NCBI GenBank assembly: GCA_000004985.1
Contig: GG738851.1
From: Naegleria gruberi
Lineage: Eukaryota
Length of the DNA stretch: 64,000 nucleotides
Strand: one strand, 5' to 3'
The notes under the pieces were generated by a model. The model had not been told where the DNA came from, ran no database searches, and saw only the letters and a program-made list of their open reading frames with translations. Shown piece by piece: positions 756-64,000 of this stretch (its first letter is position 1; each line of letters begins with the position of its first letter). The translations under genes and the position numbers were made by a program.

Positions 756-2679
756 TTATTTGTCTGTCTTTTGCACAATAATTGGAGTACCTACTTGTAC
801 AACTACAAAGGCATGGATTGGTTTTGTAGAAAATTTCTTATTCTCCTTCAACAATTTAACATAATCACTAAGTTGTGTTTTTGCTTTTTCAACAACATGA
901 CTAACTATTTTCATTTCCTCCTTATCTGTTCCAAAGAGATATGTTTCATTTAATGGTAGATTAAGTAATTCATTTTCGAATAATTCAGAAAGTCCTTCAT
1001 TAATTCTTTCAACAGTTTTGGGACGTTTCCATTTTCCACTCAATACATCAAACATAGTTCTCCTATATTGCTCTATCAATATCTTTGATTTCGATTTAGT
1101 TCTCTGTTTTAAAACATATTTCAATTGTTTATCATTCCAGGTTAAACCATTAGGACTAATTCTTTTAAGTTCAAATATTATCACATCTTTATCACTTTCC
1201 AATATTATATCAGTTCTTTTATCAAAATCATTATCTACTTTTTGATTCTCACTGAAATGTTGTTCATTGATTCCACTTTCTGTTTTAACTTGGAAATAAG
1301 AGTTTCCATGTTTATAGTAAGCTTGTAAAACACAATAAATTGCATGTTGAAGTGCTCCCTCTGAAAAAGAATTATCATAATGGATATACCTTTCTCCAAT
1401 AATATTTTCCAATATCTTTTTTACAATGTCCACAGAAGGATGTTTGTAACGTAATATCATGTCATTTTGAGTTAGTGAAACAATATTTTCCAGTTCATAA
1501 AAATATTGTTTTTGTGCTATTTCATTGGGAATTAATAATGTTTTACAGAATGAATTATCTTCTTCTGAAAATGTAAGCATTCCATGGTAATACATGAAGG
1601 ATAATGTATTATCCCATACTTGTTTTACACTTAACTCAGTCGTTGGTGGTTCTATAATCTCACGAAGTTTGAAAGAACTAACAATGGAAGTATTAACTTG
1701 AACAAAATTTGTGGCTAAAAGTTGTTGAATGATAGGAGTAGAAACTGAAGTTGTTGCAAGAGTAGCAAAAACATTCTCACTAATTTTTGTGTTATTATCT
1801 ATCATATTGATGAGAGGAATATCTTTACCTTCCATAACATCTGATCTGAATTGATTATTACTCAAAAGCTTATCCATAAAATACATTGACAGAGTGGGAT
1901 TGAAGAGGGGTTGAGATGATCCTGGAAAATGATAACCTTTATAGAATCTTTTCATTATTGAGATTGCATTATTATTCTGATGATCATTTAAAATACCTAT
2001 ATTATTCAAGGCCAGTCTCAAATCACTTTCAGTGAAACCAACTAAATCACCAAACATTTCCCAATCTGCTTTTTCCTTTCAACATTGCTGTTACCAAGTT
2101 ATCAAATGACACAAGAGCATCGGATGAAATAATTTGTTGAATATTACCTTCCATATTATGAATGGTTAAAAATCTTGTGATATCCGAATTGATTTTGTTG
2201 AATAACGCTTGTTTGATATCTTCAGGAGAACCACTAACATCAATTGAAAAATGTGTATGATTCTCAGGTTTGCCAATCCACAAACCACCAAACAATTCAT
2301 CAAATTGATCTTTCTTGTTAATATCATAATATGACGTCAACATTGATAATAACAATGACTTTCCCCATCTCGGGGGACGAACAAAGAATAATTGTTTACC
2401 ACTACTTTCCAACAAAGGAATCAAATGAGTCTTATCAACATAGAATTGTTTGCTTCTTCTGATGGACGCAAAGTCTGCTTCACCATACGGAAAATAGGGA
2501 ACAGTAACATCAATTAGATTGTTATTTAAATTTAGAATTGTTGAAAATTGTCTGAGTTGATGGTTAGTGAATATAGACGGAGTAGTACAAGGTTGATGAT
2601 TGAATTTTATATTGTTGATGAGTTGGTGATCACGGATAAAATTTAGATGTGATGAAAAGGATGTTTTATGAGGAGTATG
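756..2679 (-). CDS. AAA-ATPase-like (PF09820) plus PDDEXK_9/DUF1703 PD-(D/E)XK nuclease-family protein. The frame is broken by a 1-nt shift in an A5 run and no in-frame ATG is present, so this is a possible pseudogene or a sequencing error.
   Basis: The N-terminal frame reads ...NLIDVTVPYFPYGEADFASIRRSKQFYVDKTHLIPLLESSGKQLFFVRPPRWGKSLLLSMLTSYY, with the YVDKT and FxxRPRRFGKSL signatures. Two ORFs, 2047-2424 and 756-2057, overlap. Removing one A from the run at 2070-2074 gives a continuous ...AMLKGKADWEMFGDLVGFTESD. Upstream, the frame runs to a TAA at 2680-2682 with no ATG. Confidence 0.6.
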
Positions 2680-9801: not shown

Positions 9802-10212
9802 ATGTTCAAACAAACATCGCTTTTAAGAAATATTATCAAGTCTTCAACATCATCATGCAATCCAATGATGATGATCGGAAATTATAGAACATCATTGATA
9901 AATCGTTCTTATCACTCTTCCGTATCATTGTTTGCAGAAATGAAGAGAACAGAAAAGGATTTGGCACAAATTTTGGAAAATAACTTTGTTGATGGAGAAA
10001 ACAAGCCAATTATTAGAGTAAATGATATTTCGGGTGGATGTGGAGCAATGTTTGATATTCTTGTTGTTTCCAATAAATTTGAAGGACAATCTCTTGTCAA
10101 ACAACACAAGATGGTGATGGAAATTTTAAAGAAGGATATTCAATCAATGCACGGATTAACAATTAATACAAAGACACCAAAACAATATGAAGATATTATC
10201 AAGAAGAAGTAA
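9802..10212 (+). CDS. BolA-like protein, probably mitochondrial
   Basis: BolA signature VNDISGGCGAMFDILVVSNKFEGQSLVKQHKMVMEIL...HGLTI. The first ATG is at 9802. The ORF-track start at 9763 is a TTG. Confidence 0.75.
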   Translation: MFKQTSLLRNIIKSSTSSCNPMMMIGNYRTSLINRSYHSSVSLFAEMKRTEKDLAQILENNFVDGENKPIIRVNDISGGCGAMFDILVVSNKFEGQSLVKQHKMVMEILKKDIQSMHGLTINTKTPKQYEDIIKKK

Positions 10213-10541
10213 ATTTGTAAATTTTGTAAATTCTCAATACTACTTTCATTTTGGAATAATAATTATTCAATTTCAATCTTGGTTCATTAGTTAAATGGGA
10301 AATTAATAATTTAATATATTAATTATTTAAAAAATCATCGGAATAATTCCAAATATTTAATTCTATTCATTCTCTATTATTCACTACAATAAAAATTGAA
10401 ACACAGTGGAAACACAATAGTGGTGGCTATTTTCAATCAACTTGTTCACAACAATTCGTTTTTCGCCTTTTTTGAATGGCATGATTTTTGGCCGCCTCTT
10501 CAAGAAGATGGCGAAATATCAAACAACAACAACAGAAGAAA

Positions 10542-11715
10542 ATGCAAACAAGTCTTGTTAATAAATCACTGAGAGTTGCAAGAGCAGCAACAGGAAGAGC
10601 ATCATGTTGCTCCTTATTGAATAATAACAGTAGTGGAATTGTAATGATGATGATGATGAATCGATTGGTGCAACAAGGAAATCATAGAGACTTTTCAAAA
10701 CTCTCACAAATTGTTCATTCTTCATTGTCATCTTCGGAACCAGAAATGAAAATTACACAAGAACAATTGAAAGCTGCTTTGGAGAGAAAAAAGTTGGAAC
10801 AAGAACAAAGAATTGCACATAATAAGAAACAAGAAAAGGAAAGAAGAAAGGAAAGGAATAGAGAATTCTTCAAATGGGTTGGATTGTTTAGTGCCTTGTT
10901 CTTTGGTATTATGGTTTATCACTTGGCTTGGTTGGTAAGTTTTTTAACAGAGTGAGGGTTGACTGATTTTATTGAAATAGTGGGCTCCAGAAATTGAAGG
11001 TGCATTGAAAGATTCATTGATTTACTATTTCAGAGATAGTAAGACTCTTACACAACTCTTTTTGAGTGTTTTTGATGAAAGTAAAAAGTTAACACATAGA
11101 ACTCATTTGGAAAATGTGATGGCTACTTTGAGAACGAGTATTAGAGTTGCTAATTCAGGCACTTTTATTCAAGAGTTTGGAACGTTGCAAACTTGTAAAT
11201 GTTTATTGGAATTGGTTAGTACCAATCAATTGACTGAAACTATTGGACAAATTTATCAACAAAAAGTCAATGAGGAAGAAAATGATCTCTCTAAATTGGC
11301 TTTCGTTACTTTGAATTCATTCCTTAAACATTTGACACATCATCCAGAGATTATTAATAATATTAGCTATTTAGTTTTAAATGGAAAAGAGGAGAATTTG
11401 GAAATGTTTATTGTAGATTCTACAGCAAAGAAAGTGGCAAATATTAATTTTGATATTCTTGAAGTTTTACTTTCAAATTGTCAAACATCACTCAAATCCA
11501 AATCAAACACTGATAATATTGAACTCATAGAAAAGAACGAGCCTTACATGGAATTCATACAATTGTTATTTTCAAACTCTAATTTCATTAATGTTTTAGA
11601 AAAATCTCCATATTCTAGTGTGGTTAACACAAAGTTACAATCATGGTCTATTTCAAATGAAAGAGAAAAGAAATTCCTTGCCAATAAGATATCATCCTTC
11701 ATCAACTCAAAATAA
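10542..11715 (+). CDS. Hypothetical protein with an N-terminal presequence-like region, a coiled coil and one transmembrane helix. Likely join(10542..10934,10981..11715).
   Basis: The first in-frame ATG is 10542 (MQTSLVNKSLRVARAATGRAS). A TM helix GLFSALFFGIMVYHLAWL lies just before a GTAAGT donor at 10935. An acceptor AG at 10979-80 joins in frame to WAPEIEGALKDSLIYYFRDSK..., which is the ORF at 11005-11715. Confidence 0.5.
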
Positions 11716-32138: not shown

Positions 32139-32256
32139 GGCTACGGCCATATCACGATGAATGCACTTCATCCCGTCCGATTTGAAAAGTTAAGCATCGT
32201 CGAGCCACATCAGTACTGAGGTTGGAGACAACTTGGGAACCTGTGGTGCTGTAGTC
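32139..32256 (+). rRNA. 5S ribosomal RNA
   Basis: GGCTACGGCCATATCACG...CATCCCGTCCGATTTG...AAGTTAAGCATCG...GTACTGAGGTTGGAGACAACTTGGGAACCTGTGGTGCTGTAGTC. The 5' and 3' ends pair to form helix I. Confidence 0.9.
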
Positions 32257-32263
32257 TTTTTTT
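32257..32263 (+). terminator. Pol III T-run terminator (TTTTTTT) of the 5S gene
   Basis: Seven T residues directly follow the 5S 3' end. Confidence 0.7.
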
Positions 32264-52772: not shown

Positions 52773-52845
52773 GCTGGCGTAGCTCAGTCGGTAGAGCGTT
52801 GGTCTAATAAGCCATTGGTCGCCGGTTCGATCCCGTCCGTCAGCA
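52773..52845 (+). tRNA. tRNA-Ile (anticodon AAU)
   Basis: Cloverleaf: acceptor GCTGGCG/CGTCAGC with one G-U pair, D-arm GCTC AGTCGGTA GAGC, anticodon loop CT-AAT-AA, T-loop TTCGATC. It closely resembles eukaryotic tRNA-Ile-AAT. There are two non-Watson-Crick positions, 27-43 and 50-64. Confidence 0.8.
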
Positions 52846-61181: not shown

Positions 61182-61850
61182 ATGAGTTTAGCCAATCGAG
61201 TGATGATGGATGAATTGATAGAAGAACACGAAGGAGAATCAATTATTATTAAATTGGATCATCACTTCGGATCATCAATATTAACCAACTTTTACCGATC
61301 CATTCCCAAAAACAATAGTAAATTAATTAATGATCAACAATTTCTTCAATTATTCAAAGGTAAAGAATTGAATACATTCAAAACTCCACAATTACTCTAC
61401 AGAGCAAGTAGAGATGGGTTTTCTTCAGAAAGCTTTCACAAAAAATGTGACGACCAATTTAAAGTTGTGATTATTGTAAAGTCCAAGGCTGGAGATTTAT
61501 TTGGAGGATTTACAACGCAAAATTTAAGACGAGATGGACCAACTGTACATGTTAGAGATGAACAATTATTTACTTTCAGATTTCAGAATGACAAGTTTTA
61601 CACTTTCAGATTACAACCAACCTTACTTAATTATGTGTTGCATAGATATAATGATACCCACTTGTTTGCATTTGGGTATTGCTTTTGGGTGTGCTCTGAT
61701 GCCAATATCCAAACTGCATCTGGTTCACACCAAGCTGAAAACTTCATTCTGGAGGAATGCAAATTGCCAATAGGATCACCATACTTTTTTAGTCAAAGTA
61801 CTCTAGGTACTCTAGTGGAAGATTTAGAAGTTCACAAAATCACAGACTAG
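61182..61850 (+). CDS. TLDc-domain protein
   Basis: LLYRASRDGFSSESFHKKCDDQFKVVIIVKSKAGDLFGGFT is the TLDc signature. Confidence 0.7.
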   Translation: MSLANRVMMDELIEEHEGESIIIKLDHHFGSSILTNFYRSIPKNNSKLINDQQFLQLFKGKELNTFKTPQLLYRASRDGFSSESFHKKCDDQFKVVIIVKSKAGDLFGGFTTQNLRRDGPTVHVRDEQLFTFRFQNDKFYTFRLQPTLLNYVLHRYNDTHLFAFGYCFWVCSDANIQTASGSHQAENFILEECKLPIGSPYFFSQSTLGTLVEDLEVHKITD

Positions 61851-61997
61851 AGAAATACTGAAATTTACTGGAAATCCATCCTGTCACCATATGGTTAGTT
61901 GCAATATTGAATAATTGACCAGACATTACTTAAAGTCCTAACTGCTGATTCTTAAGCCTCTATAATAAAGATTGTGGTTCATATGAAAATGGAAAAA

Positions 61998-62115
61998 GAC
62001 TACAGCACCACAGGTTCCCAAGTTGTCTCCAACCTCAGTACTGATGTGGCTCGACGATGCTTAACTTCTCAAATCGGACGGGATGAGGTGCATTCATCGT
62101 GATATGGCCGTAGCC
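61998..62115 (-). rRNA. 5S ribosomal RNA, second copy, inverted
   Basis: It is the reverse complement of the 32139-32256 copy with two substitutions, U to C and A to G. A T5 run follows on the coding strand. Confidence 0.9.
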
Positions 62116-62508
62116 ATTCATTTTATTAAAATGTGAAACATAAATCAGATTCTCACAACTCTTTGCTGGTAAAATATTATAGATTGTTGGAAAACTTTAG
62201 AAGTGAAACAATGAGATGAATAGTAGCCATCCATACTCTCAAAAATCATTCCTTATTAATTGAAATACATTAAATTTTGTTTCTAAAATACGAATTTCTA
62301 TTGTTTTAGTTCAAGAGGAGTTGACCAATCAATCTACAACATAACTTAAATCAATAACAAATCTTTATCTGAATTGCGAAATAGTTCAAAATTTCAAGCT
62401 TTCATTGTCTCTTCCTCTCATCATTTTAGTAACCAACGAGAGAGGGTTTTGAAGTATCAAGTCGAAGGAAATAAATTGTTTGCATTGTTTTGAATGGTAT
62501 CAGGTGAA

Positions 62509-62961
62509 TTAGATTCCGCATTCCTTTTCAAATTCCTTAACATCAAACTTGGTCTTGGTAGAAGCATACTTGATAGCCTTTTCAACTTGTTGGGAATTTT
62601 TGAGCTTTCCCTTGGCAATATAGGTTGCAACGGTCTTTCTATTGGCACTAGTTTCTGGCAAGGTGGATTGAATTAGCTTGACCAATAATGGACCACATTG
62701 ATAGTTGAATTGTGGTGATGTGATTTCCAATGGAATTTGTACTTCATTGACAAGTGTGATGAATTTAGCAGAAAGACTCTTGCTCTTGGTTAAATTGAGA
62801 ATATCCTTCTTGGTCAAGCCTACGATGGCCATTACTTTTTCTTGGTCCATTTTGATCAAATTGAAATTTTTAGTTGGTTGTTTTTTTTGTTGAATATTAT
62901 TTGATGAATAAATAACATGGTCTTTTTGATGACCAAACTTGGATTTTGTTCCAGTTTCCAT
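62509..62961 (-). CDS. Stand-alone protein that resembles the first N-terminal helical subdomain of eukaryotic glutaminyl-tRNA synthetase (YqeY/GatB-like fold)
   Basis: ...KSLSAKFITLVNEV...CGPLLVKLIQSTLPETSANRKTVATYIAKGKLKNSQQVEKAIKYA...KFDVKEFEKECGI* parallels human QARS ...[37 protein letters not shown]...TVDFERECGV. A stop follows directly. There is no downstream catalytic domain, because the 5S gene lies 400 bp away. Confidence 0.5.
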   Translation of the reverse strand: METGTKSKFGHQKDHVIYSSNNIQQKKQPTKNFNLIKMDQEKVMAIVGLTKKDILNLTKSKSLSAKFITLVNEVQIPLEITSPQFNYQCGPLLVKLIQSTLPETSANRKTVATYIAKGKLKNSQQVEKAIKYASTKTKFDVKEFEKECGI

Positions 62962-63212
62962 TTCAATACAGTGCACCAGTGTTGTAAACTTGAATCTTTA
63001 AACTTCCATTAAATTTTTAGTCAATTCATTGTAGTTAATACTAAACGCCTTGATGGAAGGTTCAATGGAGACGAGCACATCAGTGTGAAAGAGTTAAAAT
63101 CCTTTATTCTTTCCTTCAAACAAGCAGACGAATCTTTACATACAAATTTCGAATTAAGAGTAGACAACATGGGTGTGAGCTAAAAAGTAAATAGCAATAC
63201 CATTGTTAATAC

Positions 63213-63932
63213 TTATTCCTCCTTTAATAAAAATTTTCCAAGCAACGCATGAAGTTTTTGAGCTGCTCTTGCCTTTTCTTCCTTTGAGGAGAATAAATCA
63301 TCCAAATTCCTTGTTGAAATAAGAGTTTCCAATGTGGTCAAATGCTCTGTAAAGGTAAGATTATGATCTGAAACAAATCTTACTTGCTTCTTCTTTTCCA
63401 TTCTTTCACTTGTTGGTTCAATTGGTTGATGAGGTCTAATGGGGCTCTTCTTTAGTATTGGCGTAATGGCTACATTATTCATATTTGGGGAGCTATGTTT
63501 TTGTGCACTGGTTTGAGTTATCTGAGTTTCATCATCTTCTATACTGGTTTTTTCTGGTGTTGACTCTCCCACTGATGTTAATTGGACATCAGGTTTTTCA
63601 ATCTTGACCTGATTTTCAGGAGCTGTAAAAGTTATAGAGCACGACGAGGATGAATTGGATTGTTTTGGGGTACATCCAGATTCCAACTTGCTGAATAAAT
63701 CTTCTACAGATGAACTATTTTCCTTCTCTTCCTCTTTCATTATTGGAGATAATTCCAAAGCTCTATTAAAATCAGGAGTGATAAGGTTAATCACTCTTTC
63801 ACCATTCTCTTTTTTAGGAGTAATTGGAATATCTTTGATATCTATCATGGAACTGTCATTCAGCAGGTTATTTGGTGCAAGATTATTATTAACGACAACT
63901 GGAGCAGAAACAATATCGCTAATATTAAGCAA
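63213..63932 (-). CDS. Hypothetical acidic S/T/P-rich protein
   Basis: 239-aa ORF. The protein may be longer through upstream exons beyond the window. Confidence 0.4.
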   Translation of the reverse strand: MLNISDIVSAPVVVNNNLAPNNLLNDSSMIDIKDIPITPKKENGERVINLITPDFNRALELSPIMKEEEKENSSSVEDLFSKLESGCTPKQSNSSSSCSITFTAPENQVKIEKPDVQLTSVGESTPEKTSIEDDETQITQTSAQKHSSPNMNNVAITPILKKSPIRPHQPIEPTSERMEKKKQVRFVSDHNLTFTEHLTTLETLISTRNLDDLFSSKEEKARAAQKLHALLGKFLLKEE

Positions 63933-64000
63933 ATTATTTACAGTTTCCTTCTTGACCTTTACCTCAACCTCTTCATCACTATCATCAATGGATAGAAGTG

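Follow-up and report, generated by a model that had tools for sequence, protein, structure and literature searches.

The 64-kb stretch of Naegleria gruberi DNA analysed in this study (64,000 nucleotides, hereafter the window) carries on its minus strand a coding sequence for a stand-alone N1 (helical) subdomain of glutaminyl-tRNA synthetase (GlnRS). This coding sequence (62509..62850) comprises 113 codons (62850..62512) followed by a TAA stop codon (62511..62509) and corresponds to XP_002681225.1, whereas the complete open frame on the minus strand spans 62509..62976. Translation from ATG 62850 gives the annotated 113-aa product, and translation from ATG 62961 gives the 150-aa form considered in an earlier sequence-only reading of this DNA. 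The product ends in ...DVKEFEKECGI, directly followed by TAA. The last 113 codons of the open reading frame (ORF) are 100% identical to the N. gruberi "predicted protein" XP_002681225.1 / EFC48481.1 (NAEGRDRAFT_78510, UniProt D2V4A2), located on a 693,645-bp scaffold.

The open in-frame extension 5' of the homologous ATG (62851..62976, minus strand) comprises 37 codons when counted from ATG 62961 and 42 codons when counted from GTG 62976, and may reflect an alternative start or 5' UTR. The proximal 33 nt of this extension (62851-62883) are homologous (blastn) to the 5' leader of the GlnRS gene from another Naegleria species (Naegleria sp. L005). The extension as a whole (62851-62976) encodes a lysine- and histidine-rich, and hence basic, peptide, and the 150-aa form has a net charge of +12. 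This stretch might serve as an alternative N-terminus, perhaps one with a targeting function, or be no more than leader sequence. As estimated from the base composition of the window, a frame open over these 37-42 upstream codons is expected by chance with a probability of ~4%.

On its 3' side, the ORF is followed by a 393-bp spacer (62116..62508, minus strand), in which translation showed all three frames to be closed by stops, and then by a 5S rRNA gene (61997..62115, minus strand; Rfam RF00001, 105.4 bits), which lies on the same strand as the ORF and is a neighbor only. The ORF and the 5S gene face a convergent gene (61182-61850, plus strand), which encodes a 222-aa protein, TLDc-like by eye. 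The other immediate neighbor is a Ser/Asn-rich low-complexity ORF (63213-64000, minus strand), which runs past the end of the window. The window also contains a second 5S rRNA gene (32139-32257, plus strand) and a tRNA-Ile(AAU) gene (52773-52845, plus strand), the latter unrelated to the ORF. The genes around the ORF are ordinary host genes, including those encoding a sirtuin, an E2 acyltransferase, a pirin, and the TLDc-like protein.

Family membership and predicted fold

The N-terminal domain (NTD) of GlnRS is composed of the N1 helical bundle (yeast residues 1-110), a conserved G112-V-G114 hinge, and the small N2 tail (yeast residues 119-178) (PMC3333875; PMC4838373). N1 resembles the helical domain of GatB, and N2 resembles the tail domain of GatB and YqeY, which in GatB is one of the tRNA-contacting domains (PMC3333875).

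In Pfam searches, the ORF matched PF04558 (GlnRS "non-specific RNA binding region part 1") with E=3e-19, covering profile positions 6-111 of 162. The score reached 70-71 bits, compared with a gathering cut-off of 28.6, and the segment scanned alone gave 71.1 bits, a value inside the range of 70.9-102.7 bits obtained for the same segment excised from genuine GlnRS proteins. A direct phmmer search of the ORF against PDB gave a marginal result (E about 0.3), and profile and fold comparisons were needed. The AF2 model matches both 3TL4 and 4YE6, the predicted fold being a seven- or eight-helix bundle superposable on yeast Gln4(1-110) or human N1. These results confirm the earlier proposal of a stand-alone homolog of the GlnRS N-terminal subdomain, including its similarity at the profile level.

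Missing from the ORF are the G-V-G hinge beyond its first glycine and the N2 tail, that is, the rest of PF04558 (profile positions 112-162) and PF04557. The ORF also shows no match to PF02637 or PF09424 and contains no tail domain. The label "YqeY-like" used in the sequence-only reading is therefore misplaced, as it is just the YqeY-like tail subdomain, together with the hinge, that the ORF does not have. No match to the class I catalytic core (PF00749, HIGH/KMSKS) or to the anticodon-binding domains (PF03950, PF20974) was found anywhere in the 64-kb window. When full-length GlnRS proteins, including that of N. gruberi itself, were used as tblastn queries, they gave no other match in the 64 kb and all alignments ended at codon 62512; the earlier statement that no catalytic domain follows the ORF thus holds for the downstream DNA and for the whole window. 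In the spacer (62116..62508), nothing resembling the remainder of the GlnRS NTD is left, the best Smith-Waterman score being 31 as compared with a mean of 31.1 for 300 shuffles. By this comparison, an apparent tblastn extension past the stop codon to 62428 was dismissed as a chance similarity.

By sequence and predicted fold, the ORF belongs to the PF04558/N1 family but is neither a GlnRS nor a complete GlnRS NTD; nor is it a YqeY/GatB_Yqey protein. It corresponds exactly to one autonomous folding unit (N1).

Origin from the Naegleria GlnRS gene

Using a full-length heterolobosean GlnRS as query, we retrieved the GlnRS proteins of N. gruberi (P0137), N. fowleri (P0136), and a third Naegleria species represented in a metagenome (P0139/L005). 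The N. gruberi enzyme, which the sequence-only reading had suggested should be located elsewhere in the genome, is encoded on another scaffold (174,974 bp), comprises 771 aa, and possesses PF04558, catalytic, and anticodon-binding domains, with its own complete N1 and NTD. Since N. gruberi keeps this complete enzyme, the ORF represents an additional copy rather than one part of an enzyme encoded in two pieces.

The N1 encoded by the ORF shares 60.4% identity with that of Naegleria sp. L005, 51.8% with that of N. gruberi P0137, and 50.0% with that of N. fowleri, the three Naegleria enzymes being 67-69% identical to one another in this subdomain. Identity to a virus-like GlnRS copy is 46.7% (46% in the library search), and identity to other heteroloboseans (metatranscriptome GlnRS of the P0003 clade) and Dictyostelium is at most 36%. 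The ORF and Naegleria GlnRS also have in common a Naegleria-type segment, IPLE..S..FNY.CGPL. In neighbor-joining (NJ) analysis, the ORF fell within the Naegleria clade in 100% of bootstrap replicates, with an exact position that varied between sister to L005 (47%) and basal to all Naegleria GlnRS (39%). Homology is also found at the DNA level, where blastn aligned window positions 62883..62512 with L005 positions 1782..2150, that is, from 33 nt 5' of ATG 62850 to the last codon, after which the homology ends. The two Naegleria GlnRS genes retrieved as DNA, that of N. fowleri (L007 3001-5301) and that of Naegleria sp. (L005 1818-4133), are intronless, and therefore no exon boundary exists at the hinge in Naegleria.

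Judging from protein identity, the NJ tree, and DNA homology, it is close to certain that the ORF is a partial duplicate of the 5' end of a Naegleria GlnRS gene, which bears out the earlier suggestion of a fragment left by duplication. The same sequence comparisons show that the duplication took place in the Naegleria lineage, at about the time when the sampled species radiated or earlier, and that the ORF was not copied recently from the GlnRS gene that N. gruberi has today. A DNA segment comprising at least ~33 nt of the 5' leader and codons 1-113 of the intronless cytosolic GlnRS gene was copied to a new locus among host genes. Broken off in the middle of the G-V-G hinge and closed by TAA, this copy encodes the N1 bundle alone, with no N2, linker, or catalytic core. 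As supported statistically, it has evolved 3-4 times faster than the parental domain but still under purifying selection, keeping its frame intact and changing from acidic to strongly basic.

No ortholog of the ORF was seen among the annotated proteins of other Naegleria proteomes or in the protein libraries and metagenomes scanned, and a scan of IMG/VR for relatives of the ORF or for its context returned no match. Exact look-ups of the 113-, 150-, and 155-aa products in indexed assemblies, including transcriptome-derived ones, gave no match, and the N. gruberi GlnRS likewise gave none.

GlnRS fragments from other eukaryotes (P0006, P0008, and P0009) break off directly after the CGVG hinge, which points to an intron placed precisely between N1 and N2 in these lineages, unlike in the intronless Naegleria GlnRS. 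The annotated GlnRS models of Acrasis kona (P0143, 660 aa) and Willaertia magna (P0151, 527 aa) are without PF04558 (N1 or the whole NTD). The domain may truly have been lost, or the models may be truncated or miss a 5' exon, which bears on the dispensability of N1 in heteroloboseans.

Selective constraint and alternative explanations

A truncated duplicate may be a non-functional relic, that is, a pseudogene fragment that has stayed open by luck, in which case the gene model would represent a dead piece of GlnRS. The ORF has properties that agree with such a fate: it is truncated exactly where function should need more, it has neither an ortholog nor an exact product match in the collections listed above, and its protein sequence has changed 3-4 times as fast as the parental domain. 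An unconstrained fragment would, however, be expected to show omega of about 1 and/or a disrupted frame, and neither was found. Compared with the L005 gene by the Nei-Gojobori method, the ORF gave dN of 0.32, dS of 1.05, and dN/dS of 0.31; GlnRS-GlnRS comparisons performed in the same way are saturated at synonymous sites. The comparison of dN/dS with GlnRS advocated in the sequence-only reading was thereby achieved in part, with the gene from Naegleria sp. as the partner in place of N. gruberi's own GlnRS.

In a Goldman-Yang-type branch model fitted by maximum likelihood to six taxon sets/topologies, well-behaved fits gave omega of 0.21-0.28 for the ORF branch and 0.075-0.09 for the background (parental domain). 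Omega=1 on the ORF branch was rejected in all six configurations (p = 0.0001-0.024), in tests which rest on ~110 codons with near-saturated synonymous sites. Equality of the ORF and background omega values was rejected in one of the six only, the cleanest three-taxon set (p = 0.02). In three of the six, dS lay at its bound, rendering the omega point estimates unreliable, and from these the likelihood-ratio result alone was used. If the copy split before the Naegleria radiation (39% bootstrap), part of the ORF branch predates the duplication, which would lower omega.

The integrity of the frame is also difficult to reconcile with a relic. In neutral simulations started from parental sequences and continued to 50-64% amino-acid identity, the 113 codons stayed free of stops in only 1.0-3.6% of runs, with indels uncounted, and the length differences between the ORF and the parental genes are all in frame. 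The Pfam score equals that of genuine N1 domains, and 48 of the 63 columns invariant among the three Naegleria enzymes are kept in the ORF, most of the 15 changes being conservative (I/V, L/M, L/I, A/S). The net charge of the ORF product is +7 (pI 9.5), as compared with -1/-2 (pI 5.2-5.9) in parental N1, and GC content is not lowered; this acidic-to-basic shift could result partly from a G-to-A mutation bias. Taken together, omega, the neutral simulations, the in-frame indels, the retained columns, and the charge shift favor relaxed but real purifying selection, under which the ORF is most likely a retained small protein. The independent small protein considered as one option in the sequence-only reading has thus gained signs of retention as a gene, and we lean towards a partial duplicate of Naegleria GlnRS kept as a retained, presumably expressed small protein. 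We regard the relic as a serious but less probable reading of the same locus.

Acquisition from a giant virus was also considered, in which a Naegleria-infecting mimivirid carrying a GlnRS of host origin would have deposited a fragment of it in the host's DNA. The best non-self match in the 50%-representative library (P0002, 46% identity), the 5' part of a GlnRS, is encoded on a 12.7-kb contig with 27% GC and tightly packed genes (an intein-containing helicase, RFC, an HD protein, HSP70, and GlnRS), and giant viruses of Naegleria with host-derived genes have been documented (PMC11043551). This origin was rejected once the Naegleria GlnRS proteins had been compared, and we consider it very improbable: the ORF shares 50-60% identity with each of the three cellular Naegleria proteins and 46.7% with the viral copy, which joins N. 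gruberi GlnRS in 82% of bootstrap replicates and the ORF in only 6.7%. The GC3 of the ORF (0.43) is like that of host genes, as compared with 0.18 in the virus-like copy; the flanking genes, too, belong to the host, and endogenized giant-virus DNA in Naegleria is unreported (PMC11043551).

A Logan contig (SRR23300978; L001 1-11202) with 27% GC carries tightly packed genes encoding an intein-containing helicase, an RFC small subunit, an HD protein, HSP70, and GlnRS, and appears to derive from a mimivirid giant virus of a Naegleria-like host. Its GlnRS (10001-11197) is 68% identical in N1 and about 85% identical in the core to N. gruberi GlnRS, with which it groups (82% bootstrap), and was acquired from an N. 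gruberi-like lineage. In place of the Glu codon (GAA) of its relatives, it has an in-frame TAA at 10865-10867, which may reflect a nonsense mutation, a site of read-through, or an error in the assembly.

The sequence-only reading had raised a possible link of the fragment to insertion of the 5S unit, and the position of the 5S gene, 393 bp 3' of the ORF and on the same strand, invites the idea that a GlnRS copy, longer at first, was cut short when a mobile 5S rRNA unit inserted. When the two 5S genes of the window were aligned, however, they differed at 2 positions and were similar only across the 119 nt of the gene and a few bases next to it, no flanking unit being shared. Because their flanks are unrelated, the two copies are dispersed single genes and not parts of a repeated unit, and because they share only the 5S sequence, nothing ties 5S insertion to the truncation. 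GlnRS homology ends at the stop codon, 393 bp short of the 5S gene, with no trace of GlnRS between or beyond. Truncation by a 5S unit is thus hardly credible, and in this genome, where 5S genes are dispersed, the ORF seems to lie beside one by coincidence. Also very improbable is a first exon of a longer gene spliced across the 5S gene, or a split enzyme with N1 supplied in trans to an N1-less GlnRS: although the P0006 and P0008 gene-call fragments suggest an intron after the GVG hinge in other eukaryotes, Naegleria GlnRS genes are intronless, no GT splice donor is present at the ORF end, the window contains a 5S gene and a convergent TLDc-like gene downstream but no catalytic-domain match, and N. 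gruberi P0137 has its own N1.

Possible function and relation to known systems

As a retained gene, the ORF would encode a basic helical protein of ~13 kDa. This product cannot charge tRNA because it is without a catalytic core, and any action would have to be exerted through binding. Most plausible would be weak non-specific RNA/tRNA binding, for which the net charge of +7 (pI 9.5) is indirect evidence, or docking on GlnRS or other translation components, which the protein would assist or modulate in trans. The tRNA-binding role envisaged in the sequence-only reading is doubtful, since the hinge and tail, which are important for tRNA affinity in yeast Gln4, where hinge mutations lower the affinity for tRNA(Gln), are missing from the ORF (PMC3333875). 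More speculatively, the ORF might represent a new functional module released from GlnRS and re-tuned from acidic to basic, serving as a trans-acting RNA/tRNA(Gln)-binding cofactor or GlnRS modulator, a possibility that we put forward tentatively and consider rather unlikely.

Compared with the N1 of GlnRS (PF04558; yeast Gln4 1-110, PDB 3TL4; human QARS N1, PDB 4YE6), the ORF product differs in being free-standing, without N2, linker, catalytic, and anticodon-binding domains. It is also strongly basic and evolves 3-4 times faster, whereas the parental Naegleria N1 is slightly acidic. Bacterial YqeY, which belongs with GatB's helical domain and tail domain (PF02637 / PF09424), provides a precedent for a free-standing relative of the tRNA(Gln)-recognition module. 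tRNA-binding proteins of the Arc1p/Trbp111/EMAPII type and the YbaK, AlaX, and ProX editing domains are, like the ORF, aminoacyl-tRNA synthetase-associated modules that occur as separate small proteins. They differ from it in their unrelated folds (OB-fold, editing), demonstrated activities, and wide phylogenetic distribution, in contrast to the single species in which the ORF was seen. By analogy, Arc1p/Trbp111, YbaK, AlaX, and YqeY are possibly the nearest functional counterparts, as accessory RNA/tRNA binders. The ORF also resembles partial gene duplicates and young lineage-specific genes, having a 5' fragment of the parent at an unlinked locus, a new stop at the breakpoint, and faster evolution. 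Most partial duplicates decay, however, whereas the ORF keeps an intact frame and omega below 1.

In the searchable literature, we found no description of a free-standing GlnRS N-terminal domain or N1 derivative. The ORF is a new architectural variant of a known domain family, already present in databases as an uncharacterized predicted protein with this Pfam domain; as a lineage-specific curiosity of modest weight, it does not amount to a novel type of system. Our view of Gln-tRNA synthesis stays as it was, because N. gruberi has a normal full-length GlnRS. If not expressed, the ORF would be a well-preserved gene fragment; if expressed, it would offer a natural minimal N1 module for probing the subdomain's own role, and a neat small-scale example of a gene born of partial duplication. 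In eukaryotes, tRNA synthetases are well known to have acquired appended domains. Should the ORF indeed be a module released from GlnRS, it would represent domain shedding, the reverse of this usual accretion, and a natural experiment in which N1 folds and acts without hinge and tail.
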